This document shows positions 22,825-50,900 of a DNA stretch of 64,000 bases, in pieces. Below the pieces are notes generated by a model. The model was not told the origin of the DNA and did not search any database. It saw nothing but the letters and a program-made list of their open reading frames with translations. Numbering within the stretch: the stretch's first letter is position 1; every line of letters begins with the position of its first letter. A program made the position numbers and the translations under genes. The stretch comes from a virus: positions 1 through 64,000 of the IMG/VR virus record IMGVR_UViG_3300035665_000023; one strand, 5' to 3'.

Positions 22825-22920
22825 GCGGCACCTCCGTGTTGTGTGTTTTGCATCGTGTTTTAGTTCTTCGCTACGGTATGGTCTGCGTCTTGCGTCTTTC
22901 TTTGGTAGTAACGCCGGTGG

Positions 22921-23598
22921 ATTGCATCGTTCTTTGGTCCTTAAATTCACTGCGGTTTCGGCGGATTCCCAGCACAATCGTTGTAACCTCGGTTCTTGCA
23001 TCGTTTTTTGGTTGTTAAATTCGCGAAGGTCTGTTCCTTTCGTCTGCTCATCTACTCACCTCCTCTGCATCGCTCTTTGGTCTTTTAATCCGCTGCTGTG
23101 TCAGCGTCCACTTTACAGAAGTTGCGCTCTAACCTTGCATCGTTTTTTGGTTGTTGAGTTCACTGCGGTCATTCAACCCCCAAAATGAAATGTCTGCACT
23201 TGTCACCTTGCATCGTTCTTTGTTTATTAACTTCACTGCGGTGGTTCAGGTTTCCGGTTTTCGGGGATCAGCCTCTTGCATCGTTCTTTGTTTATTAACT
23301 TCACTGCGGTACTGATCGTCACGCGATGAAAAGCGAGAAGCCAGTCTTGCATCGTTCTTTGTTTCTTAACTTCATTGCGGTCCAGCAATTTATCCCGAAT
23401 TAGCCGTCTACAGTCTACTTGCATCGTTCTTTGTTTATTAACTTCACTGCGGTGTGAAGACAAGGTGGAGTTACTCGAATGGGCTGTTGCTTGCATCGTT
23501 CTTTGTTTATTAACTTCACTGCGGTCAAGATGAAGCGAGCGACTGACGAGGTCTTTGTGCCCCTTGCATCGTTCTTTGTTTCTTAACTTCACTGCTAT
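22921..23598 (-). CRISPR. CRISPR array: 10 repeats of 36 bp, 9 spacers of 32-38 bp
   Basis: Plus-strand consensus CTTGCATCGTTCTTTGTTTATTAACTTCACTGCGGT at 22921, 22995, 23064, 23134, 23207, 23275, 23346, 23418, 23490, 23563. Degeneracy increases leftwards (remnants at 22847 and 22889), so the leader is on the right and the crRNA repeat ends ...GAACGAUGCAAG. Confidence 0.97.
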
Positions 23599-23659
23599 AG
23601 CCCTACGTTTCCATAAACGAAAACGCAGGGTTCAAATCACCTTTCGCGAGAGGCTAGAG

Positions 23660-24091
23660 TTAGACCCTGGCTCCCACACATAAGCTCAACGTCTCTTTGA
23701 GGCTTGTGTTCTCGACACGTAGCCGCTCGCATTCCTTCTCAGCGGCGATACACTTTTCCTTCCACGAAGGCACAAGACGCTCTCGCGGCTTCTTATCCAT
23801 TTCTATCGTCTCAGCGATGAGGTCTCGGATGTTGTGCCTTGTCCAGTCATTGCGATCTGGATGCGCTTTTAAAACTGCGTGTAATGTCAAAAACGATGCA
23901 GCAGTATCGCTCAACTCCTCATCTAGGAAATCGAGTTCATTGGTTCCGTGCTCTGCGTGCCATGCCCGAAAGTCCTCGTCTTCGTAGCAATCCGACAGGA
24001 GAGCGACTCTGTCGAATAGCAACTCGCTACCCTTCTTGCGCAACTCCCTCGCTTCGTGCATTTTGAGTTCCCATTTTTTTGCTCTTGCCAT
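23660..24091 (-). CDS. Unknown 143-aa protein between the Cas12f-like gene and the array
   Basis: GAGGAG RBS before MARAKKWE; helical, with a C-terminal coiled coil (EKECERLRVENTSLKETL). Confidence 0.8.
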   Translation of the reverse strand: MARAKKWELKMHEARELRKKGSELLFDRVALLSDCYEDEDFRAWHAEHGTNELDFLDEELSDTAASFLTLHAVLKAHPDRNDWTRHNIRDLIAETIEMDKKPRERLVPSWKEKCIAAEKECERLRVENTSLKETLSLCVGARV

Positions 24092-24153
24092 TTTGTAACT
24101 CCTCGTAAAACGTTCGATAAACAACACAACACTTACAAACTGGGAGCCGCCGC

Positions 24154-25431
24154 TTACGCTGCATCTCCACGCTTTGGATCACTAACTTTCCGCACGCCAC
24201 GCACGCCGTTGGTGGTAGCCTTGGGCTTCTTTGGCGGCTTCGGCTTTTTGCCATACTCAATACCCTCCGATTCACACTTCGACGCTAACATGGTTCCGAA
24301 CTGAAAGTAGTCCCAACTCATTGCCGATATCCTGTCATTGCCAACAGTCGATAAGTACCGGCCCTCTCTGTTTTCGTCCCTGGGTTGAAGATACACAATG
24401 CGACCACATCCCTCACGTATAGCAAGGTTAACAACCTGCTTTGAGACTTCGTTGTTGTACCTCTTGGTAAAATCCTTCCATCTACTTGAAAGTTTCGTCC
24501 ACACCGCATCCGCCCGCCTGCGTCCGTGACCTTTCTGATTCGATCCAGACCATCGATAGTGTGTCTTGCGACTATTTCGTTCTCTGATAATGGCTCGTCG
24601 CGCGTGTTCTACGTGAGCGCCATTGCCACCGAACCGCCACGACCCACGTCCATTGATTGCGACTCGCCACGGACCTGTTTTCGCAGGACGCACATACAAC
24701 ACTCGGTCGGCGCTCAACTTCTCGCGGACCTTGTTCGGCATTTCGTAAGCGATAGAGACAAACCATTTCCCGCGATCATAGATCAGCGAAGACCCCTTCC
24801 ATGCGTATTCGCCAGCGATAATTTTTTCGACAGTGGATCGGACGGACGCACACTTTCTTTTTGCCAACATCAATTCGCACGGCTCAACGACACTCTTCCC
24901 GTCAGCAAGTCTCTCAATGCGAAGCTCGCAAATGTACTTGTCGCCTTGCTTGAACAGCTTGGCGTTGTCGCGGTCGAAGGGGATCGGTTGCGGTCGCGTG
25001 AACGAGGGTAATGACTCGTTTCCAAAAAGAATTGAAACCCACCCAGGGAGTGACCCAGAAGCGGCCTTCCGTGTATTAACCTTGCTCTGCCAAGCATTGG
25101 TCAACAGTCCGCGCGTTCGGACATTAACGCTTGAAAACTCTGCCGACATAATCCGGTAGAATGATCTTGCATCTGCTGATTTCGTTAATGGTTCTTCGAC
25201 TGCCTTGCATGGCCATTGCGGCTTATCGCCTCGTTTTGTTTCTTGCCACGCTTTGTATGCATCGAAATGCGATCGAAGCTTATCCGCCGATCCATTATTC
25301 GCGTGATGGCAAAGCCACACTTGCCAAAGCCTGTTTGTCATGCGTTGACATGCGACAGCAAGCTCCTTCCATGCGTCACGACGCTCTTTTGCAAACCCAA
25401 AGATTTCGATTCTTGCTGCTCGTATCGCCAT
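24154..25431 (-). CDS. Nuclease-dead Cas12f-like (TnpB-derived type V) effector, about 425 aa
   Basis: Cas12f-type motifs ILFGNESLPSF, IIAGEYAWKGSSLIYDRGKWFVSIAY, GHGRRR, VVNLAIREGCGRI, SWDYFQF...KCESEGI. The RuvC-I GIDLG position reads YVRPA, the RuvC-II MEDL position reads YLQP, and the zinc finger and RuvC-III are absent. Adjacent to a CRISPR array. Confidence 0.85.
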   Translation of the reverse strand: MAIRAARIEIFGFAKERRDAWKELAVACQRMTNRLWQVWLCHHANNGSADKLRSHFDAYKAWQETKRGDKPQWPCKAVEEPLTKSADARSFYRIMSAEFSSVNVRTRGLLTNAWQSKVNTRKAASGSLPGWVSILFGNESLPSFTRPQPIPFDRDNAKLFKQGDKYICELRIERLADGKSVVEPCELMLAKRKCASVRSTVEKIIAGEYAWKGSSLIYDRGKWFVSIAYEMPNKVREKLSADRVLYVRPAKTGPWRVAINGRGSWRFGGNGAHVEHARRAIIRERNSRKTHYRWSGSNQKGHGRRRADAVWTKLSSRWKDFTKRYNNEVSKQVVNLAIREGCGRIVYLQPRDENREGRYLSTVGNDRISAMSWDYFQFGTMLASKCESEGIEYGKKPKPPKKPKATTNGVRGVRKVSDPKRGDAA

Positions 25432-25465
25432 TATTCCGTGTTCCCTATCCGCCTTGCATCGTGTA

Positions 25466-25604
25466 ATAAAAGCCCGGCAGGGTTTTTTACGCCCTGCCGG
25501 GCAACCAAAGAACGAAGCGAGTGCTGCATGGCTATCAAAGTCCATAGCTTTTCTCGCTTCCGGTCGTGCAATCGACCGTCACGGCATCAACTGCCGTTGT
25601 TCCC
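25466..25604 (-). ncRNA. Putative tracrRNA
   Basis: Anti-repeat at 25503-25521 (16/19 complementary to the repeat 3' part), three upstream stem-loops, then an 11-bp terminator stem (25472-25502) followed by TTTT. Boundaries approximate. Confidence 0.75.
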
Positions 25605-25931: not shown

Positions 25932-26182
25932 AGGTGACGGATCCTCGCAATTTGTTCCTTTGATCGCTGGCTGTCATCCAGCCCGCGAGCCAGTGCGTAC
26001 AGATCCATTGATTTCGCACATGACGCGACGACCTTGGAGATGCTCTGCACCTTGGCTTCGGCCTCCTCAGAGTTTGCGACCGCATCACGAATCACAGACA
26101 TGCAGGCCCAAAGACTGTCGCCGTTGGTTCGTGTCATCGCATCGCGAAGTCTCTGCTCTTGCGCCGCCTCGAATGCATTCAT
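25928..26182 (-). CDS. Hypothetical protein
   Basis: ORF coupled by overlaps on both sides. Confidence 0.6.
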   Translation of the reverse strand: MNAFEAAQEQRLRDAMTRTNGDSLWACMSVIRDAVANSEEAEAKVQSISKVVASCAKSMDLYALARGLDDSQRSKEQIARIRHL

Positions 26183-27672
26183 GACACCACCTCATCGAAC
26201 AACTCGGCTGTCAGTGCTTCATCGTCAGACGACTCCGCTGTGATGATCACGACTCCTCGGGTTTTCGCGTGCTGATTGATGATCTTCCTCGCGGTTGGAT
26301 CAAGAGACTCGAACGCCTCTTGCGGAATCACGATAATGCCGCACTCAGGAAGCAACTCCAATGCAATGTCGATTGCCAGCTTCCACCGCTCTCCATGCGA
26401 CAAGTCAGCAAAGTAGGTTGCGCCCCGCTTGGTGGTTAGTACCAACCGACCATGTTCGACTCGCAAGGCATTGCATGTCTTCGCGACCAGTTCCGTCAGC
26501 ACTTGATCAGTCGATTTCGCCGCATCTCGAAGCCGTTCCGCAACGCTGCGGTGCTTTTCCGCCAGGGATTTGTGCCGAATCGCATCTTGGTGACGCCGCC
26601 GCTGCTCCGTTTGCTTAACCGCTTTCTCAATGGCGGATTCGGCAAAGGTGAGAGCCAATTCAACAGATGCAATTTCCTCGCTGCTTGGGGCATCGATGGG
26701 CGTGTCGATGATCTTCTGCAGGGCTGCTAGGTCTTCTCGCTCCCTGATCGCTGACGCTAGCTGTTGCTCGGAGTGTTCGTGATCGCGTCTTGCGATTTCG
26801 ATGTTTGGCAATAATTGCTGAATCTTCGCTTCGAGCACACGAATCTCCTCGGCAATCGCATCATGCTGGTCAGACAATTGCCGCAACGATGCCCATCGAG
26901 CCTCCTTTTCTGCGTGCAATAATTCCACTCGCTCGTTTGTGTCGCTGGATTGCTCGGCGACCACCCGCCTAGCCTCCTCCTGTCTCTGTAGTTGCTTGTC
27001 GGCGGATTCCTTCTTGGCCTGCATCGCAGCCAGATTCGCCGCATGGTTCTGTTGCTCCTTTCTGAGCACATCAAGACTGGGAATCTCTTGCTCTGGGTCG
27101 AACTGCTCCCCGTTAAGTAGACCAACGGCAATCCCATCGGCGTGTTCGGCAAGAGCCTCTTCCTTGCGAGCTTCGCGCTCGATGTCGCGCTTGATCTTGT
27201 CGGCGACCGCAACCCAGTCGTCGCCCTCCATAGCCGAGGGAGAAACGATCCCCAAGAAAGCGTCCTTTCCACCAAGCAATTCAAAGAACCTAGATGGGTC
27301 TACCTTGTCTGCAGTCAACGATGCAAGCGCCCGAATCCTGCGAGCGTCTGCTGCCTCGTTGGACTTCAAGCCTGGATCCACTAGGTCGGCAATGGAAAGC
27401 TTGCCCTCAAGAGTGTAGACTTCCAGCTCTCCGGTTCGGCGGGTCGATCGACCGACCGTAACCTTAGCTCCCCATCCCGACACTTCGCCTCGCAAAGCCC
27501 CGTCGCGAACCGATAGCGAACCCTTGCCCGTTGCAATCGTTTCGACTGCCTGGAGGGTGTTTGTTTTTCCAATCCCATTCCGACCACGCAGGACGCAAAC
27601 GCCCCCACCTTCTGGAATTGGAATTGAAACGTGTTCTACTGGCCCGATGTCCTTGATCTCGATTGTGCTCAT
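26179..27672 (-). CDS. SMC/Rad50-like ABC ATPase with coiled coil
   Basis: GRNGIGKT Walker A, long coiled coil, LSHGE signature, IIVIPQEAFESLD degenerate Walker B/D-loop. Confidence 0.85.
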   Translation of the reverse strand: MSTIEIKDIGPVEHVSIPIPEGGGVCVLRGRNGIGKTNTLQAVETIATGKGSLSVRDGALRGEVSGWGAKVTVGRSTRRTGELEVYTLEGKLSIADLVDPGLKSNEAADARRIRALASLTADKVDPSRFFELLGGKDAFLGIVSPSAMEGDDWVAVADKIKRDIEREARKEEALAEHADGIAVGLLNGEQFDPEQEIPSLDVLRKEQQNHAANLAAMQAKKESADKQLQRQEEARRVVAEQSSDTNERVELLHAEKEARWASLRQLSDQHDAIAEEIRVLEAKIQQLLPNIEIARRDHEHSEQQLASAIREREDLAALQKIIDTPIDAPSSEEIASVELALTFAESAIEKAVKQTEQRRRHQDAIRHKSLAEKHRSVAERLRDAAKSTDQVLTELVAKTCNALRVEHGRLVLTTKRGATYFADLSHGERWKLAIDIALELLPECGIIVIPQEAFESLDPTARKIINQHAKTRGVVIITAESSDDEALTAELFDEVVS

Positions 27673-35813: not shown

Positions 35814-36890
35814 TTGTTTGAGTTGCTGACCATACGTGTCAATCGCATGGCAAAATCTAGGCTCATGCGTAAACCATTTTTTCGTAAAGCAAGGCAGTGC
35901 TGGTACGTCAAGGATGATCAAGGGCACTTCATACGTCTGGATCCAGACGAGAAGAAGGCGTTCGCGATTTGGGAACGTCTGCGGAACATTGCGGACTACC
36001 AGCACCATGACGCAACGCTGGAGGCGATCTGCGAGGCGTTCCTAAAGCACCATGAGCCGGAGCTGAGTAAGGTTAGGTTTGCTGATTTGACTTGGATCCT
36101 AGAGGAATTCGCTTTGTGGTTCGGCCCGACCCGACTGGCTCGAGAAGTTGGCAAGGCAGATGTGTTGCGATGGATGCGGTCGGAGCGGGATTTGCGAGGT
36201 GGTCGAGGTGTTTGGTCGGCAGCTCGGCAACGGGACGCTGGGCACACGGTAAAGCGAGTGCTGGACTGGGCAATCAGGCGGCAATACTTGCCCTGGTCGG
36301 ATGTAACGGAGATGCGGCTCCCAAGCCCAGAACCTCGGGACGAAATGATTTGCTACGCAGATCACTGCCGTCTAATCGGTGGGTGCAAGGCACGAAAATC
36401 ACGTCCGTTTCGATTGGTGCTAATTGCACTGAGGTTATCGGGGGCACGGCCCGCACAAGTGCGGGAGTTGACGGCTAGCAACGTGATCGGGGATAGTTGG
36501 GTGTTTCGTCGGCACAAGACAAGTGCGAAGACGGGTAAGCCGTTGGTGGTTCGCTGTGGGCCTTGCCTGCAGACCCTGACGCGGATATTGACTCACGCTA
36601 GACCCAGCGGCCCAATGCTTCTATCGGCCCATCGCAAGCCTTGGCCGAAGGATGGGATCGTTCTTCGTTTTCGTCGCCTTCGAGAAGCGGTTGGGCTAGA
36701 CGGGGTCACGGCCTATTCGTATCGGCACACCTACGCGACAGATGCACTGCAGGCGGGTATCTCGCTGCCGACCGTTGCAGCGTTGTTGGGACATGTCAAC
36801 CCGACGATGGTTTCGCGAGTGTATGGGCACCTGGAAAAGCGATCGGATCACCTGAGTGATGCGGTCGCTAAAATCAAACGGGCTGAGTGA
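35814..36890 (+). CDS. int: Tyrosine integrase (true start probably 35847 or 35865)
   Basis: SGARP, HKT, YSYRHTYAT, LLGH and RVYGH catalytic motifs; N-terminal KPFFRKARQCWYV arm-binding-like segment. Confidence 0.92.
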   Translation: MFELLTIRVNRMAKSRLMRKPFFRKARQCWYVKDDQGHFIRLDPDEKKAFAIWERLRNIADYQHHDATLEAICEAFLKHHEPELSKVRFADLTWILEEFALWFGPTRLAREVGKADVLRWMRSERDLRGGRGVWSAARQRDAGHTVKRVLDWAIRRQYLPWSDVTEMRLPSPEPRDEMICYADHCRLIGGCKARKSRPFRLVLIALRLSGARPAQVRELTASNVIGDSWVFRRHKTSAKTGKPLVVRCGPCLQTLTRILTHARPSGPMLLSAHRKPWPKDGIVLRFRRLREAVGLDGVTAYSYRHTYATDALQAGISLPTVAALLGHVNPTMVSRVYGHLEKRSDHLSDAVAKIKRAE

Positions 36891-38924: not shown

Positions 38925-41900
38925 CTATTTCCGTTCCAGCACTTTTCGCAGCTGCCGTAGTCTCTGCACGTAGCTTTCCCTCAAGACGTAGTTATTGCCA
39001 CGCATTTCGTAAGCAGAACCGTACTGTCGCTTGTAATAATCCAGCAGCATGAGACGAGCATCGTTAAAGTCGAGTCCCATCGTGCGGAACTTCTCAATGG
39101 CTTTATCTCGCTCGGAAACCGATTTCTGGAACGACTCGTCGCTCTTGTGTGTTTTCCTCTGCGGATTGGCTAGCGCGGCATACACGACAGCTTGTTTCTT
39201 AGCTTCCCTTTGGTCGAACATCTGCTTGCGTTGTTTATCCGTCAGCAAGTCCTTGTACCCAAAGTCTGGAGTGTTGTAATCCATCGCTTCGAGGTCTTTT
39301 TCAAACTGTTTCTTTCGGTCTTCTTCTGATGCCTTTTTGTACTTAGACCGCGATCCGTGCGTTGAAACTGACACACCGAAGAAAGCTTCCAATGCCGCGA
39401 GAGTACCTCGCTTAAGACCGAGTTCGCTCTCTGCTGCGTATATCTCTCGATAGGTCAGTGGAGTAATGCGACTCCCAACGATGTTGCGATAAATCGCTGT
39501 GGGGTCGTCCTTGTCCGCTATCACGTTGCCAACCGCATCTCGTCCGCTAGCCCATTCCAAAATTGCCGATGGAGCTGTTCCTAACTTGTATCGACCGTAG
39601 TTGATAATAAAGTCTGCTGCGGTCTTTCCACCGTACTGAACGTCATCTCCATAAATCGACTTGATCTCACCCTCGCTCGTCTTCATTTTGCCCGTCAATA
39701 TTCTTGAGGCAAGGACAATGGCTGGCATCAAACCACCTTCGTCTTTGAATCGAGTCTCGCCGATCTTCATTGCAAGAGCATCGCTCGACCGCAAGTCGAA
39801 TTCAAAGGTTGGCATTTCTTCTTCGTCGTCGCCTGCAAGCAAGCGATACGCTACGTAAGCAACCGCCATTTTCGCTGTGTGACCAACCATTGCCTGAATG
39901 TACAGCTTGGCCAATGCGACCCGCATACCCCTGTCAGCATTCCATTGCCCAATCCATTGCGGAGTCACCAACTGGAACGGAACAATGAAGTCAGCTTGGA
40001 TTCGCGACCACGTCCAGCGTCTAGCGAGGAACAACCAATCAAGCCATGGATTGCCACCCTTCAAGCCAGTCCCTCGTCCGCTGAATATGTTGGCAATCCT
40101 TCCTGTCTCTTTGATGTCGTCTTCCGTCCATCCCGTGTTGACCTTAAAAAACTCTCTGGCGGCAAGAGTGTCTCGCTTCTGAATGTCGTACATGTCTGCC
40201 TTCATGATGTTGGAGAACGTGCGGTTGCCACGCTCTGCCATCGCATACAGCTTTGCCCATGTGCGGAGGGGGAGCAAAAGTTTTGTTTCTGTATTCTCGA
40301 GCCACCGAATGATCGCCGATTGATACAGTTCTTCTAATTTCGCCTGAGGACCAGTGACCTGCGTAAAGTCAACTTTCGCCAGTTCGTATTCTTTTGCATT
40401 GGGCCTGCTCTTCAGTCCATCTGCCGATTCCAACGCGAGTCGCTGGCTAAACACTGCAGGTATTGCTTCCATCAGTGCGTAAAAAGCTTTCATCGGCTGC
40501 GAATACGTGTAGAAGAAGCCTTGCCGCAGAACAAAAGACATTTCTAAGCCGAGCATTAGCGTCTTTGGAATCAACGAAGTGGCCTCAAGAATCCCTTGGC
40601 CAATCCACTGTCCCGTGTTCCATGTCGCTCGCTTTGCCTTTTCGATGGCAATCATCGCGTCATATTGCACCTCCTCGATTTCCATGTTCTTTTCGAGGAT
40701 GGCTTTTTCCGTGATAGTACGCTTCTTCAAGGGCACCGGAATACGACCAGCCTTTGCTTCCTCAAGTCGCCTCTGCCAAAACGCTAGCCGCCTTTCTTGC
40801 GCCTTGCGATAACGTTGCCAATACTTCAATTCCTCCGTAGCTTGATACACGGGATTTGCTTCTAGCGCTACTTTCCGCAGTTGCCTCAAAGATCGCAACT
40901 CGGCCATGAGTTCTTCTTTTCGCTCCGAAGTCAACTCTGAGTTTTTCGCGGCAGGAGCCCATGTGCCATCCTCAAGAGCTTTAACGTCAGCCTTGACCGC
41001 ACTTATCTGCCGCTCAAGCATTCGCACCGAAGCATCGAGTCGTTGCTCTTCAGTGAGTGGCTTGCGTCCCTTCTTGGGCTTCGTGGGTGGGAAGATCTTT
41101 TCGTAGTCAGCCTTAAGCTTGTCTCTCACCCTACGCTTCTGTTCGAGTTGGCTACGAAGATCCAACAAATCCTCATCTGGCTCGAGAGGTGTCTTTTCAT
41201 CGACTGGTTTGACAAGTTTCGTCCTGCTCTTTACCGCCTCGTCCAGAGCAGCGATGTCCTTATCAAGCATCTCCAGCCTGTTTTTTGCTGCCGTTTTTGC
41301 TGTTGTCAGAGCAGACTTCAGTTGACCCTCCTTCGATTCAGCGGGAACCGGAAGCGTCTTCTTTAGCTTGTTGAATTGCGAAATCAACTCTCGCTCAATG
41401 CTGTCAGGTGTTGCCCTCTCCTGGCCAGTTGCTTTTGGAAGAAGACCCTTCTCTCGTAGGCGGCGAGCCACTTCTTCTGGAGTAACGCCTTTATTGAGCC
41501 ACTCTTCACTTTGCTTGATAGCGTTAATCGTGTCTTCGATTTTAAGTGATTGCCTAGCCTTGCCGCGAATCGCCCGAATGATGACTTCGACTGGCTCTGT
41601 GTTTAGCGATTGCCAGACACCGTAATCGGACATCGCCTGCATTGTTTCGTATTTCGATATCCCAGGCACTTCGGTTGACAGTTGTTCGTACACAACATCA
41701 ACGACATCCTTCCAATTTTCTTCCTCAGCGCCGTAACCCAACTCAACCGCTGCCCGCATCAACTCCTTCGCTCTTGCTCCAAGTTCTGAATCCGTAGGGT
41801 TGTCGCCAATTGGAGATTCAGGTTTGTTCTTTGAAATGCTTTCGTTCCATGCGTCTCGAATCGCTTGTATTTGCTCTGGAGAAGCATTGCGAAGGTTAGC

Positions 41901-44900
41901 TTTGATCTGCGCTTCTACCTCCAAAATGGAGCTGACGCCAGCCTCTCGTAATGCGGAAACGACATTGTTCGCTGCAGCTTTGATGTCGTTTGGTTGCCGA
42001 CTTGGTGAGTAGCGGATGTCTGGATTGTTTGGGTCGAACGTGCCTCGGTTGCCGGTGGCGGATTTGATCTGGCTCTTATCTCGAACCCAAATTACGTCAC
42101 GCCCCCGTACCTGCCACTTTCCACCATCCTTGTCCCATTCGTTAACTTTCAAATAAACAGGCAGGACTTTCTCGCCATACTGTGCAGCCAACTCCTTGTC
42201 GATCGCAAACCAAATCATCCCATGCATCGGTGTATCTTCAAACACATCAAACTCAGCATTTGTACCATGGTAAACAACCAATGGCTTCCCATCAGCATCG
42301 ACTACCTTGCTGTCGCCGAACCACTTCTTGAACTCAGGGGTATCTGTTTGAGGTCGAAGATTGCGACCAGCCGCAGGACGATTGCCACCGCTCCACAGAT
42401 TCTGAAACACCGAAAACGCATCGGCAACCTTTTTAACTACCGTAGCACGCTTAGTCCCCAGCTTGGGCTTTTCTGGTTCGGGTTGCGCCGCCGCTTCCGC
42501 CTTCTTCCTAGCGATGGTCTCTTTTGCCAGTTCCTCTACAAGTTTTGCGTTCTGCGCTTCTAGCTTTTTGATGCGGTCAGCCAATTGAGCATACTCTTGT
42601 AGTTGCGATTCGGTTGGTCGCTGCTGCACTTCTCGCAAATGTCGCCGAACAAGCCCAGCCACAGAAAAATCAGATGCCAACTCAACTTGGCGAGAAACAC
42701 CCGTCTGACCCCAAATACTCCCAGCTTTCTCCGAAGCTTCAGTGGCTGTCAGTATTTCATCAAGAACACTTTCGCCAGCTTGGCGGCGGTTTTCAAGATC
42801 ACGGATATACCTGCCTAAAACGGCTTCTTCAACACGATCTATAGCTCTTGGGTTGTTAGCCAGCTCCTCTGCAAGACGTGCTGGATAACCTGGGGTCTTT
42901 GCAATTCGCCTAGCAGCTTCCGCCTGCCATTGATCAACCGATTCTCGCTCTGGCATCACCCGTTCACCAAGACCAGCCAAAGCCCGCAATTCGTTCGTCT
43001 TTACGTTTTTTGTACCAGTTGTTTCATCACTTGCGGGCGGAGACGGTTCTCTAACTTGCGGCTTAATCAGCCCTTCCTCTTCGAGACGCTTGTACAACCC
43101 AGCAAGGATGTCGTCCTTTGGTTTTCGCCTTGGTGAGTAGCGAACGTCAGGCAGCGTCTCGTCAAATCGCTTGCTCAACGGGACGACATTTCCAGAGTCA
43201 TCGTAAGTTACAGCATCAGATGATTTGATTTGTGATGGGGTAAATGCAACGTAAGCGTCGAAGTCAGACGTTCCGTCAGTATCTTTGATAATTACCCCGT
43301 CGTAGCCCATCTTTTGAATTGCCTTGACGAGAGTTCCATCGGGATCCTCTTCCTTGTCAAACAACTCCCACGAAGCGCCCTTGCGATCAAGCCATCTCGA
43401 GTTGACACCTTTAGAAACCAACGTGTTAAACTGAGCGTCAGTTATGCCGTTCCTCCAATCCAGCAGCTCACCAAATACACGGAACTTACGTACGCTTCCG
43501 CCTTTTCTTCCTCCCTGCTCTCGATATCGAGACGCCGCCTCTTCGTCGGTCGTAAAAAACGCGGCGTTCCTGCTTACCTCGTACGAACCGAATACAGTGC
43601 TGTTGAATCCCTTGCTAGGAATTTGAAACTCGTAGAAGTTGGAGTGCGGGCTACCGTGGTACAAAACTGGTGACACTCCACCAGCAACTTCGCCAGCACC
43701 TGCAGCCGCTGCATCAACCATACGCTGTGCCTTCGCCATGTCGCCCTGGTCTACTGCGGCAAGATACTTGGCGTCATTATTGCGACCTGGGGAGTAACGA
43801 TAGTCCTCTCGTCGTCCCAGCACAGGATTCTTAGCCAATACCATACCGCCAACTTGCACCACTTCTTCTGCCGATACCACTGGGGTCTGCGTATCTTTAT
43901 CATAGAAGTAAGTGTGACGGATGGGATTCATCCCAATCTCAACCCACCGATCCTTGTTAGTCTCTGCCAGTTTGTAGGCTTGCTGCGCCGTCATCGGCAC
44001 ATACTCGCCTCGCATGGTAGCGATCGTGGACTTGGGCTTACCAGCGGCGATATTCAGAGCGGCGTTTTCGGTGACCCCGAAAGTAACATTTCTCAATACA
44101 GATGTCGGAGTATAGGCGACAACTCGACCGGCACTTCCTTTGTTCAGGTCTGGGCGAGGTTCATGCAAAGAGACTACCCAAACGTTTTCGTCATCGTAGG
44201 CAGGAATATCCAGTCGAGTTTCAAGCAATCTTCCTTTGGCAATGTCTTCAGGATTTTGGATTAGATCTCTCTTTAGTCGATCTCCAGCTTTGCGATCACC
44301 TAATCCGCGAAGCATATCTTCCTTGCTTGCTGGAATCGGCACCTCGTCAAACTTGCGAAGAGGCATTCGCATGTCCACGATCCTCTGATACTGATTACGA
44401 TCGATCAGACCAGCTTTCAGATCCTGTGCAGCTTTCGTGATCTCGGGATCACGTTTTCTCTTTGCTTGACGACTTGGTGAGTAGCGAACACCTTCATCGC
44501 CCGTCTCCTCCATGTCTGCGGCACGACCCTCAGTCCATGTCCACTCAGGCATCAAGCCGATTTTGTTTTCTGCAAATACCGTGTCTAGTACGCTGGCGGT
44601 TTTATTTTTTTCTGCGTATGGACCGAAGTTCAACCAGGAGTTTTGACCGCGAGTCTCGCTAGTCATTGCACCTATGGCGGGTCCGTAGTACAACCGAACA
44701 TGCGCCTGCCACGCGTTTTCCTCGCCACGGGCTCTAAAGCCAGCCCCCTCCATGCTGTGCCCAAATGCGTCGTGTACAGCGCGAAACAAATCGTTAGCGG
44801 CGACTGGGTGAGAAACCCCTTTTTGATCCTTCCACCTCAACCCAGTATCGGCAAGCATTGGGTTGTTTGCTAATTCAGTAGCCGTAATGCCTTCAGTTCC

Positions 44901-47900
44901 GTATCCAGCATATGTGCCGTACACAGCCATCTTCTTGTTTTGACGCAAGTCACGCACGGCAGAAGATGGATTGCCGTCATACGGATCCGTGTCGCCATCA
45001 TAGAAAGTAAACGTGTATCCAGCCTTTACCAACGCATCGTACTGCGACTTCGTTTGACGAATCATGTCGTCATACGCCTCTTTGACCGCTGGGTCATTTG
45101 GCGAATGCTGCATCTCCTCAAACGCTTGCGCAATACGCTTAGCCCTCTCTTCGTCTACCCGGACGTATTTGGCTTGCCGTTTGAGATTGATGCCGTTATC
45201 GCGAGCGTACTGCTCTGCGGCGTCAACTATCCCTGGGTCTGGTCCTGACGCCCCTTGAACAGATGGTGAACCTTCAAGCGGCGTATAGCTTCGGCCCTGA
45301 TCCCGTCCTCTTCCGTCTCCGGTCGATTCGGATCGTCGTCCTGGGGAGTATCTTTGGCCTGAGTCTTTGATGGGGGCTGCTGTGAATTCGGTGTTCCAGC
45401 CTTGCTCTCTGGCGAACTTTCTTGTTGCGGAAATGACGGCTTGGCGTACATTGTCACTCCTTCTTTGTAGATCGGGTCGTCCGGTCCCGCCGATCCGAGA
45501 TGTGTATTCTTCCCCATTTGGATTGCTTTGCCAGCTGTTAGAGGTTGCGTTGTATTCGTTGCCTTCGCTGCGGAAGGATTTTGTTGTCGTAGTGCCACCA
45601 AGGAAGCTTGGATTGCTTCCATGGAGAGCGCTGACTACCTTTTCCATTCTACTGTGGAAGTCTAGGTTATCAATGGAGAAGTTGAGTATTCTGGCTCCAT
45701 TCGGCATGAAGGCTGGAGCGAGATCCGTATCTTTCCCGAATTCCCGAAGCATGGCGTCGTAGAGATCTTTGAATTCCGACCCTTTCCATGCCCTATTACC
45801 TGTGATTTCAAACCCATTTTCAAGAGCAGGATCGCTCGAATAAACAGGTAAATGCCAGTAGACACCATCTTGAGACAGGACATATCCCAAGATGTTGGCG
45901 TACAAATCCAGTTTCTTCCTGTACTCCTCAGTGATGGTCTTGACGCCACCATTGTTCTCCAGCATGACCTCAAACTTCGATTGCGAACCAGCACCGATGT
46001 CACCCTGCCATGCAGAGAATCCGGTGATTGTGACTGGAACATCGAGTCCTACAGCCTTCGCAATCCAATCGCCGTTCTTGAACAGGACGTCAGTAATCCT
46101 CTTCAGATATTCTTTTTTTACGGCATAACTTGCATTATGAATCTCTGGAATTATGTCAAGCGTCTTAGATGGAATAGCTTCCCATGAAAGTTGAGAATCT
46201 TTTATTCCACGACTAACCAGCTTGCCGTAAACTTCCTGCATTGCCGGGGAAATTTCAAGATTGACTACCGGATCCGAACTTGTCTTGTTATCAATCGATT
46301 TGTATATCTTCCTGAGCCAGCTAACAACTTTTTCAAACACAGACCTAAGAGTTTTTGATGTAAATTTCCCGCCCTTAATGTATTTAAGCAGACCGTTGGC
46401 AAACTTTTCTTCGGCCTCAGTTGTCCAGTTGCCATCAACTACACCAGACCATTTCATTGCAACGTCAATGTCAGCGTCAGTAATCCCCTCTCGCATGTCT
46501 TTTGGAATGCTTTTATCGAACAGGAACATCCTTGCTACGTGCCCTAGTTCGTGAATCCCATCTGCAACCGTTGGCTTGTTAAACGCACGCATTAGTGCTA
46601 TGCCAGAATCAGTAAGTTCTACTGACGCCTTAACAGAAGCAGTCAAAGACCTCAATACCCCGTCAGATGGATAGGAAGTATCAGTAGAAACTCCCATCAT
46701 CCCGTAGAACAACTTTTCCATGTCCCACATCATCTCTTGAACGATGGCTGGTTCAACACCCAACGTTTCTGCGACCTGAACCCACGCATCTTCGAGAATT
46801 TGCCTCTTGATCCTGCCTAGCTGATTGGTGTGCTTCCAAGGAACTCCAGTGTTTGGCTCTCTGAAGTAGCGAGACATCGTTCTGGCGACCCACATGTCCT
46901 TGGTAATCGTCTTAAGTTTTTGCCATCGATTCAGGATATAAGAGCCTTGCTTTGGATTGTCGCCCAATGCAAACGCGCCAACTATTTTTAGATTTGGATC
47001 ATTTGGGTTCTTAAGGTCTCTTTTGAGATACTCGTGAACCTTAAGTTTTTTTGCTGCCTTATCTCCGATGACCGAAACAATCTCGGCCCATGTGTGCTCA
47101 GACTCCATCCACTTTATGGCTTTTGCTAGTCCCGATTTACCTCCGCCGAAGTGATCGACAAGCTTGCTAAAACTTCTTGCTGACGCCAAATTGAATGTTC
47201 TGGAGATTTTCTTGAACTTACCAGGAACAAGATTTGGCTCGTTAGGAATTTTTTTGCCGCTAGAAGTTACTCGACTCGACTCAAAAGTGATCTTACCTCT
47301 CGGAGTAACATACGTCGGCTTACGTGGACGCTGCCCATTCATGTCTCTAGGAGCGTTGTAATCTGTCTTCCAGACATGCTTCGGATTGGATGTCATGCCC
47401 GTTAGCGTTCCGTGTAACATCCACTCTTTCAGGACCATTAATCCAATCAACGTATCTACACTTGGTATAGCGTTGGCAGATGAAAACGAACCCATAATGT
47501 GAAGCAGCTTAACTTCATCATCAGTAAGTTTATCCCTACCCTCCGCAGCCATTTTAGCTGCAATGTCCTTGTCTCTTTTAGCCCATTTACTCAACCATGG
47601 GTTCGCCCTATCGATAATGTCAGTGGTATAAAAACTGATATATGATCGGTTGAGTTTTTTCCAAGCGTTAATTTCTAATAGCGTGTGCTTTACGATGGCA
47701 TCAACGGCAGCTTGACGCCCATCGGATGTGTTAAAGTCAACACCTTCTGGAACAACCTTGTTTTGATTGGCATACTCACCAATCCACGCCACCGCAGACT
47801 TTAATGTCTTTTGAACAGCAACCGGTTCTTCACCAGAGAGAATTTTGTGGACTTGGAATAAAGCGTTTTCCGCAGGCATTCCGCCTTTGACTAGCTGTAT

Positions 47901-50900
47901 CCGTGACTTGTCCAATCCCATTGCCTCGGCAATAGAACTAACAGCAGTGGCAACATCCTTAGGGACGCCGAAAACTTTCTCGATAACACCTGGAGTAAAA
48001 GCTTTTTCAGAAAACTCTTCTTTGCCTCTTGCAGGTGCCGCACGACGACCACCCTTGCCCTTCATGGCAACGTTGTTTCGCTTCATCGCCCTTTCGATCG
48101 CTTGGCGTGTCTGCCCAGCAAGCGTGTTTGGGTTGGTCACTCCTGGCTCAGCAAACCGCAACACTCGTCGCACCCAACGACCGATTCTTGCTAGTAATCC
48201 TGGCTTTGCCTTGCCGAGGTCGTTCCAGAACTTGAAGTAAGCCGCCCTGTCTTCTAGGTAGCGAGACAAGCCCTCGTCGTTTAGCAAGTCCTCGTCTTCG
48301 AGCAGACGTTCGTAGTATCCGGCATCTACTTCTTTCATGTCTGCGAGATACGCGACTTTAGCCTTGCCTAGCCCAACCGAATCGTTTTTGCTGACCCAGT
48401 TGTAGAGCGATCTCCATGCCTTGGGTGACGACCGCTTGATTGCATGGAACATTTCATGGGCAAACAAACCCCATGTCATTGCCTTCTCTGGGCGACCCTC
48501 TTTCTTCAGAAGGCTATCCCATTTTTCTACATAGTTCCGAACAAGCCAAATAGTGCGAGAGTTTGGAATAAACAGCCCAGGTACTCCTTGGTCGGGACTA
48601 CCTTCGACCAGCCGAAGCGTAATGCCGATCTTATTGAGTATCTGCTTCTGCTTACGCTCGTCTTCGGTAAAGTCTTTGGACGGGATCTCTTTCCCTTCCG
48701 GCTTTTTGGGGGGACTTGCGTCTTTATCGGATTCACCGCGAGGAGCTGCTTGACGTTTCTTCTTTCTAGATGGTTTTGCTTTTGCAGCAGCGGTTTCGAG
48801 ATACTCTCTGATTGTTGGTTGGCTATTAAGCTTATCTGATATTTCGTCAACAATATCTTCTCGTTCAGTAGCCTTAACATCCAACTCTCTCGCCAAGTCT
48901 TGCAGGTCTTCCTTATTTAGACTGCGAAGGTAAGTCTTTGCTGGCGACTCCTTCGTCTCCTGCTTGGCTTTAACTTCGGGCTGCGCAGGAGCGATTTCTG
49001 GCTTATCTTCTTGCTGTGAAGCGGCTTTGTCAAAATCTTCTGCTGTTACAAGATCGCTTGTCGGCTCCGTTCCTTTCCATGCATACACTGGCGTACCATC
49101 TGGTCGATACATTTGCGTAAGAAGCCCCGCATCAACCATTGGTCGCAACGAACGTGCAACCCACCCACGCGAATCTTTGCCAGGCAATCTGTCAGATATT
49201 TCATTCGCTGCCAGCCAACGGTTTTCTGGCATTTTGTTTCGAAACGTGAACGCAAAAGACTTCTTGCCAGCGTCTTCTGGTCTCATCTCGCCAGACTGCA
49301 CCATCGCTTCCGTAAATTGCTCTGGGGTTGGCTTTTTTTGTTTTCCTGCAGCTTTTGGAGGTTGCTCAGCGGGTTGTTTTTTAGAAGGAGCCTTTTTCTT
49401 AACCGACCTTGGCTTTGGCAATTCCTTCTGACCAGCAAAGTCATACGTGCCAGCAATCATGTCCGCCAGATACGTGTCTACCTTTGGAACACTTAGCGGC
49501 ATTAGCAAACCAACCACCTCGCCGTTAACAGCGTAAACTACCGGCGTGGTTATTTCATTACCTTTCTTCGCCTCTCCGTATATCGTTGCTTTTGGGTGTC
49601 GCTTCAATATCGTGTCGTGATAAGCCTTGCTCAAAAGAACATAATCGCCGCTATCGTTTTTTAGCATGACTTGTCTTTCAGACATGTCTCCGCCGCGATA
49701 ACCGACAACAGTCATTTCATTGCCTGGTTTAATGGTGTTTCTGGTGGGAGCGATAACAGACTCTACCTTCACCTCCCTGCCTATGCCTTCAATTCCAGAT
49801 CTTTTCTTCGATGAAGCTAATATTGCGTCCCTGTCTTTATCGGGAGCCTTGATTAGCACTCGACCATCTGTGTAATAACCAGTAGCCTTCAGAGTTGCTG
49901 CAAGACTTTCACCCTGAGCCACATTCCACAAGCCAGCCAGCTTTTCATTTGAGTACGACATGCTCCCAGAGTCAGTCTGGGTGAACCTCTTGTCATCGTC
50001 TTTGTCAAATGCGCCTTCAAAAACACGTTCCGCTATGTCTTTTGCCTTTTTCTGGTCCGAAATGTTAGACGCCTCAAAGTCCCATGATTTCGAACCAGCT
50101 TGCCTCACGGTCCAAGTGCCGCTATCCTTGGACTTCTCAATGAGTAACACGCGGTCGCCTCGAGACGCTCGAATTGTCTGAGCAACTCCTGAAGCGTTTT
50201 GCTTAATGCTTGTGTACTCTGTGGGCATAGGCTCTGCAGAAGGTTCTGGAAAAACAGGCGACGGCGCTTCGTCCGCCGCCTGCTCCTCCATAGGACTTAT
50301 TTGCCCTTCGGACGGCCTTTGCCCCCCTTCGGTTTGCACTTGCACATTAGGATCACCTCCCCCCTTGGTTCCACGAGCATCTTGCACCTCCTCACGTTGA
50401 CGATCTCCCGACACCGCATCAGGAGACTCGGAAATCTTTTGACTTCCATTCGGAACAATCCACTCCGATTCATCAGCATCAAAAAGACCAAGAGATTTTA
50501 CCTCTAAACCAACGGCACCTTCCTTGGTGTAAACCGTCCCGCCGTACTCCTTGGCCCATTTCTCTGCTTGCTTTTTATCAGATGTCCAGCCCAGGTACGG
50601 ACTGTCGTTTTTACTGGGGTCTTTATTATCGCCTCTGTACAAGGTCGGCGCAGCTTTGGATCGTTCGGCAACGCCATCCACAAACGCCCTAGCGAGTTCA
50701 ACGCCCTCTTTGACGTTGCCGCCTTCGACATTCCCGCCTTCCAAGAAAACTTTCAGGTATCGCTTTAGATTTGAGGGACTGCCCTTCCATGTTCTTATAG
50801 CTTCTTTTAGCTTCTCGCTAACTTCAGGTTGGAAAGAAGGCGTTGGCGCTGACACCGCGTCAACAGGCGTGGGCTCAATTGGATTCTGTACAGGAAACGG

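Follow-up and report, generated by a model that had tools for sequence, protein, structure and literature searches.

A phage-borne type V-F CRISPR derivative with a nuclease-dead, truncated Cas12f-like effector and a conserved partner protein

The virus record IMGVR_UViG_3300035665_000023 of IMG/VR carries a compact CRISPR module, in which a nuclease-dead, C-terminally truncated Cas12f-like effector of 425 amino acids (aa) is combined with a trans-activating CRISPR RNA (tracrRNA), a 143-aa partner protein, a leader and a CRISPR array. We analysed positions 1 to 64,000 of this record, a stretch of 64,000 nucleotides that we call the window. The locus is a derivative of type V-F and not a Cas12f nuclease. 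As judged from sequence comparisons, it is probably a working phage-borne system, which would bind DNA under RNA guidance without cutting it and would silence rival mobile elements and a defence gene. An original prediction, made from the DNA letters alone, had described the tracrRNA, the effector, the 143-aa open reading frame (ORF) and the 61-bp leader on one strand, and all of them are found where it had placed them, on the minus strand.

Cas12f ancestry and the lost catalytic site

The effector ORF (24154-25545) encodes 463 aa counted from the first ATG; the start at 25431, which gives 425 aa, fits the relatives, most of which begin at that position. A phmmer search against the PDB sequences matched residues 104-392 of the effector to AsCas12f (E 7.4e-16), and the PADLOC Cas12f model matched it with an E-value of 1.9e-31. 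The Pfam scan gave no match, and the NCBIfam model guided_TnpB scored 38.9 bits, below its cut-off of 100. The AlphaFold (AF2) model, with 96 relatives as input, has a mean predicted local distance difference test score (pLDDT) of 89.8, with disorder restricted to residues 406-419. Its best Foldseek match is AsCas12f (PDB: 8j12_A) with an E-value of 7.3e-20 and a template modelling (TM) score of 0.58, and OsCas12f, SpCas12f1 and CnCas12f1 were also found. The sigma-linked nuclease-dead Cas12f proteins (dCas12f; PDB: 9n9c and 9n9m) follow after the Cas12f1 nucleases with E-values of 1e-15 and 6e-15, and Cas12k (4e-8) and Cas12m (2e-7) are far weaker. The effector is homologous to Cas12f in sequence and fold. 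The original prediction had proposed this ancestry from AsCas12f motifs, and HMMER aligns each motif to the residues it had named.

The catalytic Asp of RuvC-I (GIDLG in chain 8j12) lies opposite R248 in the HMMER alignment, and none of the 96 relatives has an Asp or Glu at this position. The Glu of RuvC-II lies opposite R351 in the gapped HMMER alignment or opposite L348 in an ungapped one, non-acidic both ways, with D352 adjacent; position 348 is acidic in one of the 96 relatives. The chain ends 33 residues past the last aligned helix, which itself ends near residue 390, and the tail is basic with a net charge of +8.8. Past residue 393 the tails of the 96 relatives have a median length of 32 residues, and the zinc-finger signature of two CxxC past residue 380 was found in none of them. 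A further 138 representatives likewise end shortly past the last Cas12f helix, with a lone CxxC within the last 120 residues in five of them, and neither a zinc finger nor RuvC-III was found in the 96 + 138 relatives read. The replacement of both acidic residues and the loss of the zinc finger and RuvC-III to a basic tail had been predicted correctly.

The locus shares with type V-F the Cas12f homology, the adjacent array and a tracrRNA with an anti-repeat, and the effector lacks the complete RuvC triad (D, E, D) with a C-terminal zinc finger. As these catalytic features were tested and not found, the locus is classed as a V-F derivative and not as a nuclease. It is nevertheless conceivable, if quite unlikely, that the targets are still destroyed, either by a rearranged catalytic site or by a nuclease that cuts the bound DNA in trans. 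Positions 352 and 356, just behind RuvC-II, are acidic in 77 and 74 of the 96 relatives, which speaks against a protein that only binds; catalytic-site rearrangements are described for TnpB clades in the excerpted text of PMC10691335, and the spacer turnover described below is immune-system-like. The missing acidic residue at the RuvC-I position and the missing RuvC-III region argue for binding without cleavage, as does the partner, which is all-helical and has no match to a nuclease family or fold.

Compared with the related locus L011, whose effector protein is 88% identical, the ratio of nonsynonymous to synonymous substitutions (dN/dS) of the effector gene is 0.059 at a dS of 1.27. The gene is under strong purifying selection and is not decaying; the intact ORF described earlier stands, and decay of the effector is contradicted by this ratio. 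The family is large. In a collection clustered at 90% there are 101 clusters of relatives, 100 of them at 34-100% identity and one at 28%, and in a library clustered at 50% there are 574 representatives at E<=1e-3, of which 170 have E<=1e-30. Of the 36 loci compared in this study, 10 come from viral contigs, 24 from metagenomes and two from metagenome-assembled genomes (MAGs; Planctomycetaceae and Pirellulaceae). The CRISPR array adjoins the effector gene in all eight viral loci examined.

Guide RNAs and the changing array

About 120 nt upstream of the effector are conserved across 10 aligned loci. The RNAalifold structure of these 10 loci has two stem-loops, then a stretch without pairing and a terminator hairpin, and 15 of its 28 pairs show compensatory changes on both sides. 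The fold of the window tracrRNA has a minimum free energy of -56.5 kcal/mol (z -5.8 against 200 shuffles). The limits of the tracrRNA are predicted from sequence, and its 5' end could reach 25604. A promoter and terminator scan called no site at the tracrRNA terminator, which it leaves unlisted because the loop has 9 nt.

In all eight loci compared, the longest run complementary to the repeat of the same locus (8-13 nt) sits in the variable segment of the tracrRNA, and most cross-combinations between loci reach 5-9 nt. The tracrRNA thus appears to have an anti-repeat specific to its locus, by which it pairs with each repeat in the 3' half. The anti-repeat of the window is complementary over 13 nt to the older ACCAAAGAACGA form of the repeat, compared with 10 nt for the current consensus; either the repeat may have drifted from the tracrRNA or the tracrRNA may tolerate a bulge. 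The repeats R7, R9 and R10 (ACCAAA(A/G)AACGA; window 22995-23169) would pair over 13 nt with the anti-repeat at 25500-25512.

An exact copy of the repeat end directly follows the tracrRNA terminator, at a distance of 21 nt from the effector ATG. The related loci L011 and L012 retain this orphan repeat end together with 12 nt after it, and neither was seen in more distant loci. The 20 nt that follow it have no second copy within the window. Candidate readings are a vestige of an upstream array, such as the upstream arrays found in L003, L004 and L021, or a unit with one guide. For a Cas12f branch, the excerpted text of Altae-Tran et al. 2023 (PMC10691335) infers a loss of activity together with RuvC-III, followed by reduction of the array to a half repeat next to the tracrRNA. 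Such a half repeat beside the tracrRNA is seen here too, but alongside a full array.

The repeat search reported 10 copies of the repeat (22916-23599). When the 36-nt repeat was used as a search pattern, 11 units were found, R1 to R11, from 23598 to 22847, with 3, 0, 0, 2, 0, 0, 5, 11, 8, 5 and 13 mismatches to the consensus. The original prediction counted 10 repeats and ended the array at 22921; its 10 good copies stand, and it missed the 11th repeat, a decayed terminal unit at 22847-22882. The six leader-proximal repeats have 0-3 mismatches and the five distal ones 5-13, with the ...GATGCA end retained, and this polarity looks like the usual one for an array that grows at the leader. The repeats of the related loci all end in GATGC(A/G)AG. 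Tandem Repeats Finder reported nothing at the array, as expected, because the spacers between the repeats are unique.

The same leader stands ahead of the arrays of L011 and L012, whose effectors differ with a dS of only 0.007 and whose newest spacers are not alike. Two spacers next to the leader are private to L011; L012 has one private spacer there and one more inside the array, and three older spacers are common to both in the same order. A strain 95-99% alike to the window was found in the lake metagenome run X20 from another year, and its differences from the window cluster in the spacers S1, S2 and S6. New spacers therefore seem to enter the array next to the leader, even though Cas1 and Cas2 are absent from the phage: neither Cas1 (Pfam: PF01867) nor Cas2 (Pfam: PF09827) was found in the 73-kb record, in a search that detected its positive controls.

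The system's own tracrRNA with its covariation and its own, changing arrays also speak against the reading that the locus is a decaying remnant or a decoy soaking up host Cas12f guides, in the manner of an anti-CRISPR. A dead phage Cas9 variant is suggested to be an anti-CRISPR in the excerpted text of PMC12669027. Given the dN/dS of the effector and the uniform architecture of the family across the 574 representatives and the 96 + 138 relatives read, we regard a remnant or decoy as extremely unlikely; moreover, no array with this repeat was found in 702 sampled genomes of the host order and family.

Spacer targets, the partner and the proposed mode of action

The original prediction had suggested a search of planctomycete genomes with the spacers, and this search gave both targets and a candidate protospacer adjacent motif (PAM). 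It covered 401 genomes of the order and 301 genomes of the family around the two MAG hosts. Spacer S5 matches 30 of 32 nt in genome G352 and 24-28 of 32 nt at four more places in G414, G454 (two) and G568. All five aligned matches begin at spacer base 1, and G647 has a match over the same S5 bases. Every S5 site, including that of G647, lies at the same position inside the int-alpA RNA (Rfam: RF02996), which was found with 38.7-44.3 bits (gathering score 35.8). A Phage_integrase gene, abutting a tRNA gene, lies 30-50 nt downstream of this RNA, except in G352, where the RNA precedes an operon encoding a protein of unknown function, a DUF1580 protein and a D5-type primase-helicase, and it adjoins a type I restriction-modification (R-M) system. 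The system is complete, with hsdR, hsdS and hsdM beside the int-alpA-led operon (L041, G352:C76, 4780-19357). By these annotations the S5-matched element is a defence-carrying integrative element of Pirellulales.

Two Phage_integrase genes contain full-length matches to spacer S1 (31 of 37 nt) in their catalytic region, with the mismatches at third codon positions, and S9 matches 32 of 38 nt inside a cellular-type HsdR gene. Copies of three spacers, each set in non-array sequence, occur in contigs from lake runs in which the phage is present: S2 over 31 nt with one difference, S3 over 37 nt with two differences, and S9 over 33 nt, likewise with two. The S3 copy lies mid-way in a 5.9-kb contig. 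The spacers of L011, the closest relative, point to the same kinds of genes: a3 matches 31 of 33 nt in a DUF1580 gene, a4 matches 31 of 37 nt in a Prim-Pol/DUF3987 gene, and a5 (33/35) and a6 (29/36) match one integrase gene at sites 440 bp apart, with a6 also found in two other integrases. The target integrases are 36-62% identical to each other and unrelated to the phage's own integrase (best E 0.1). As they are kin to each other and not to the phage enzyme, the targets are another, separate family of integrative elements, whose genes encode an integrase, a DUF1580 regulator and a primase-helicase. Their architecture presumably resembles that of P4-like satellites.

The three bases 5' of the protospacer are CTC for S1, TTT for S2, GTG for S3, GCT for S5, TTC or TTT for S9, CTC for a3, TTG for a5 and TTG for a6. 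The best match of seven of these eight spacers has T at -2, and the array has A at that position, in the repeat end. Cas12f nucleases use a 5' T-containing motif. A motif of this kind argues for recognition of double-stranded DNA.

No self-target was found for the spacers in the phage itself. Among GenBank phages there was one 37-nt match of 86% (E 0.06) and among PLSDB plasmids one with E 0.7, and both were disregarded. The first 24 nt of S1 have no match in IMG/VR, and in the five records behind related loci the best match (E 0.046) lies off the spacer borders. In one bacterial genome the last 10 nt of the L011 repeat are joined to the first 15 nt of a6 (L061, G654:C9, ~1501-1525), with no effector within 3 kb; this may be chance, a remnant array or the trace of an old prophage.

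With these targets, the mechanism would be as follows. Complexes of CRISPR RNA (crRNA), tracrRNA and effector would recognise double-stranded DNA that has T at -2 in the adjoining 5' motif, generate an R-loop at the target and remain bound to it with no cleavage. The targets would be the int-alpA RNA early leader and the integrase, DUF1580 and primase-helicase genes of Pirellulales integrative elements, together with a type I hsdR. In this way rival or parasitic elements, and also a defence gene of the host, would be silenced or stalled by the phage. A cutting CRISPR system is employed against PLE by phage ICP1. The silencing of competing elements or host genes suggested by the original prediction fits the int-alpA, integrase and hsdR matches, with the binding, the silencing and the contact between effector and partner as inferred steps.

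Several results weigh against this reading. Most spacer matches are imperfect (81-94%), to homologous rather than identical elements, and S4, S6, S7, S8 and S10 have no match in the searches made. The S1 and S9 matches have E-values of only 2e-4 to 2e-3 per genome, with 301-401 genomes searched; we credit them because of the exact fit to the spacer ends, the third-codon mismatch pattern and, for S9, the lake contig. Nine of the 16 listed places (G352 counted twice) fit the spacer from its first base, or 8 of 15 after deduplication, and six places straddle the repeat-spacer border or ignore the spacer ends (E 0.002-0.009) and look like chance. The array of L016 gave five weak places (E 0.002-0.004), and spacer a1 of L011 matches unrelated genes (PQQ_2 and PSD-family), which we treated as chance. 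The share of integrases among the targets is partly a detection bias, because a search for near matches can find conserved genes only. Furthermore, an outside supply of spacers is not apparent, as the repeat was matched in 0 of the 702 sampled genomes and the phage has no Cas1 or Cas2. Finally, the protospacers within element genes are antisense in five of five cases, so that a polymerase would meet the PAM-distal side, which is a weak orientation for dCas12a; those of S5 and S9 are in the strong orientation. Together with the constant partner, the antisense protospacers suggest that the system might do more than block, and a plain roadblock may not be the whole story.

The module could also be a fixed regulator for lysogenic conversion, whose guides control host genes for the benefit of the prophage as in phage TldR. 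The S9 match in a cellular-type hsdR gene would suit such a role; phage-encoded TldR repressors exist according to excerpted literature, and in the excerpt of PMC13472631 an efflux promoter of a Chitinophagaceae genome is named as the target of guides that belong to array-linked dCas12f. We consider a fixed regulator very unlikely, since there are ten different spacers, turning over between near-identical phages, and their matches are mostly in genes of mobile elements and not in host housekeeping promoters. Silencing of rival elements remains the preferred reading.

The 143-aa protein, which the original prediction had rightly singled out as relevant, is a near-constant companion of the effector. 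Its homologues form 74 clusters. By tblastn a homologue adjoins the effector in 25 of the 36 loci, and a profile search adds four more (L006, L008, L026 and L034). In 30 loci the sequence extends at least 1.5 kb past the effector, and 29 of these have the partner, including loci whose effectors are as little as 30% identical; the sole exception is L003, where a contig end cuts the locus on its array side. In close relatives the partner gene lies between effector and array; in distant ones the array comes between effector and partner. Compared with L011 the partner has a dN of 0.115 with saturated dS, and it is under purifying selection. An indirect hint on whether the partner also occurs without the effector is that, by eye, the longest contig of 24 of the 74 partner clusters is as long as that of an effector cluster. 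A partner-anchored search of viral contigs with one pattern confirmed none of 30 stretches as loci.

The AF2 model of the partner (pLDDT 94.3) starts with a six-helix domain, which a conserved W-K linker joins to a terminal helix of 30 residues, and the N-terminal domain is acidic with a net charge of -7.9. Pfam, NCBIfam, PADLOC and PHROGs gave no credible match or noise alone. The best E-value is 0.069 in a profile search of the PDB and 2.3 for the model in Foldseek against the PDB; VIA-align wide reached a Z of 4.1, under the level that is meaningful for helical models, and ESM Atlas gave scores of <=0.88. Prediction of an effector-partner complex scored 0.00 in two runs in which controls were not folded, so it has no bearing either way. 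One 245-nt contig of the freshwater metatranscriptome run X23 covers 23694-23938 within the partner gene with one difference; as DNA carry-over is possible, we did not count it as expression.

The partner most likely works together with the effector, in the role of an adaptor or co-repressor. Its site of action is perhaps the basic tail found in place of the lost domain, which is the least supported step of the mechanism. A stronger version of this idea is recruitment instead of passive blocking: the partner would be an adaptor at the former zinc finger/RuvC-III site and bring RNA polymerase, the replisome, a recombinase or a nuclease, comparable to the C-terminal domain of sigma-E or to TniQ/TnsC with Cas12k. 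Its co-inheritance in 29 of 30 informative loci would be explained in this way, and so would the acidic N-terminal domain facing the basic tail, in which a [VLM]Rx[VLM]R motif occurs in 43 of 96 relatives. The antisense bias of the gene targets fits a roadblock poorly, the locus lies amid recombination and replication genes, and in models of the sigma-linked dCas12f a sigma-factor domain replaces the missing zinc finger/RuvC-III (excerpted text of PMC10691335). We nonetheless judge recruitment unlikely, as the partner could be assigned to no family or fold of enzymes, DNA-binding or polymerase-binding proteins, and no other neighbour is conserved across the family: six other neighbours in the window were tested and each recurs in at most five of the 36 loci.

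Somewhat less doubtful, though still tentative, is the broader idea that the locus represents a distinct, phage-specific type V subtype. In such a subtype a dead Cas12f and an obligate partner with a new fold, docking on the stump of the lost zinc finger/RuvC-III, would couple binding to a cellular machine. It would serve temperate phages as an adaptive weapon against satellites and defences, aimed at the start-up module (integrase, AlpA and primase) of resident integrative elements, and would gain spacers without its own Cas1-Cas2.

Known relatives and genomic setting

Natural CRISPR systems that bind and do not cut include Cas12k, Cas12m, Cas12c and the sigma-linked dCas12f. The closest match to the window effector in sequence and fold are the Cas12f1 nucleases (AsCas12f, PDB: 7wju, 8j12 and 8dzj; OsCas12f, SpCas12f1 and CnCas12f1). 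The locus shares with them the small size, the tracrRNA and array, the ...ATGCAAG-like repeat handle and a 5' T-containing PAM, the last as inferred here. In contrast to them, the window effector lacks the RuvC-I Asp, the aligned RuvC-II Glu and the zinc finger/RuvC-III, has the 143-aa partner and is carried by a phage.

Array-linked truncated dCas12f are already briefly in print (PMC13472631 and PMC10691335, both as excerpted), which reduces the novelty that the original prediction had left unverified. The excerpted text of Hoffmann et al. (Nature 2026, PMC13472631) describes a distinct cluster of truncated dCas12f near CRISPR arrays, proposed to be repressors, with the example of a Chitinophagaceae genome and a guide to an efflux promoter. 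This cluster resembles the window locus in the C-terminal truncation, which removes part of RuvC, and in the array linkage. A phage origin, a partner and targets in mobile elements are unmentioned in that excerpt, so that the two are set apart by description and not by sequence. In the literature we found no dCas12f that is carried by phages and comes with a partner, with spacers that turn over or with integrase/int-alpA targets, and the supplements of PMC13472631 and PMC10691335 may list the clade.

The dCas12f-sigmaE system of Flagellimonas taeanensis (PDB: 9n9c and 9n9m) has a dead, truncated Cas12f fold as well, and its output needs a second protein; a gene for an ECF sigma factor with a C-terminal extension belongs to the operon there. 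It differs in its guides: the window has a separate tracrRNA and a changing array of 11 repeats, whereas sigmaE systems have single guides and no tracrRNA (excerpted text of PMC13472631). In the PDB sequence search with the effector the sigma-linked dCas12f were not matched at E<=10. The absence of Tns and sigma genes noted in the original prediction agrees with our scans: no Pfam match to a sigma factor was found among the eight flanking ORFs, where the PHROGs are of recombination and replication, and no tnsB, tnsC or tniQ among the ORFs scanned around the locus, with the whole phage not searched for these families.

Cas12m (V-M) and Cas12c resemble the locus in the proposed action. Cas12m interferes by binding with no target cleavage (excerpted text of PMC11013384), and the 2025 classification lists V-C, V-M, V-O and V-P as binding-only subtypes (excerpted text of PMC12669027). 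Cas12m and Cas12c belong to other lineages and are larger proteins with no partner, and the fold match to Cas12m is much weaker. TldR shares the truncated dead RuvC and the RNA-guided repression, and some TldR are phage-encoded according to excerpted literature. They derive from TnpB and use one omega-RNA-like guide, placed at the gene's 3' end, with no CRISPR array, whereas the window effector matches Cas12f best and has an array and a tracrRNA. We rejected an identity as TldR on these grounds and on the sub-threshold guided_TnpB score.

What this locus adds is a large phage-borne branch with a constant partner of unknown fold, a memory-like guide turnover without phage adaptation genes, and targets in start-up modules and a restriction gene. 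If the preferred reading is true, phages would use programmable silencing against satellites and defence islands, and the role of accessory proteins in dead Cas12 systems would become directly testable. Moreover, a natural DNA binder of 425 aa with a simple PAM would be usable for tools of the CRISPR interference (CRISPRi) type.

The virus record is 73,017 bp long and rated complete (100%) by CheckV. PHROG matches in the window include a portal, a large terminase, an exonuclease VIII-like protein, a Holliday junction resolvase and a replication initiator. The phage has a single tyrosine integrase at 35814-36890 (Pfam: PF00589, E 1.9e-15). These structural, recombination and replication matches together with the integrase identify the source as a temperate tailed phage, in line with the phage origin first assumed, and its hosts are planctomycete bacteria. 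Recombination genes (exonuclease VIII-like, Holliday junction resolvase) lie upstream of the CRISPR module and the replication initiator downstream, which agrees with the placement in a recombination/replication region made earlier. Read along the minus strand, the order is a non-coding stretch (25463-25604), effector, partner, leader and array (Table 1). A GAGGAG ribosome site lies 8 nt ahead of the partner ATG.

Table 1. Positions of the parts of the CRISPR module in the window.
Feature	Position	Strand	Description	Basis
tracrRNA (predicted)	25463..25585	-	two conserved stem-loops, variable single-stranded anti-repeat (TCGTTCTTTGGTT), 11-bp terminator hairpin, then U run	
Orphan repeat end	25453..25462	-	last 10 nt of repeat	sequence reading and repeat search
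Effector	24154..25431	-	425 aa, nuclease-dead Cas12f-like, C-terminally truncated, basic disordered tail 394-425	phmmer, PADLOC, Foldseek
Partner	23660..24091	-	143 aa; acidic six-helix domain (1-100), WK linker, long C-terminal helix (110-141)	homologues, AF2
Leader	23599..23659	-	61 bp, from partner stop to first repeat	
CRISPR array	22847..23598	-	11 repeats of 36 nt, 10 spacers of 32-38 nt	repeat search and pattern search

Two genes upstream of the module there is an SMC/AAA-like ATPase (26179-27672, minus strand), with homologues near the effector in L011, L012, L014, L034 and L035. It is a loosely recurring neighbour outside the core module. Further along the window, the minus strand of 38925-53048 holds one ORF of 4,707 aa, and two more, of 1,203 and 676 aa, come after it.

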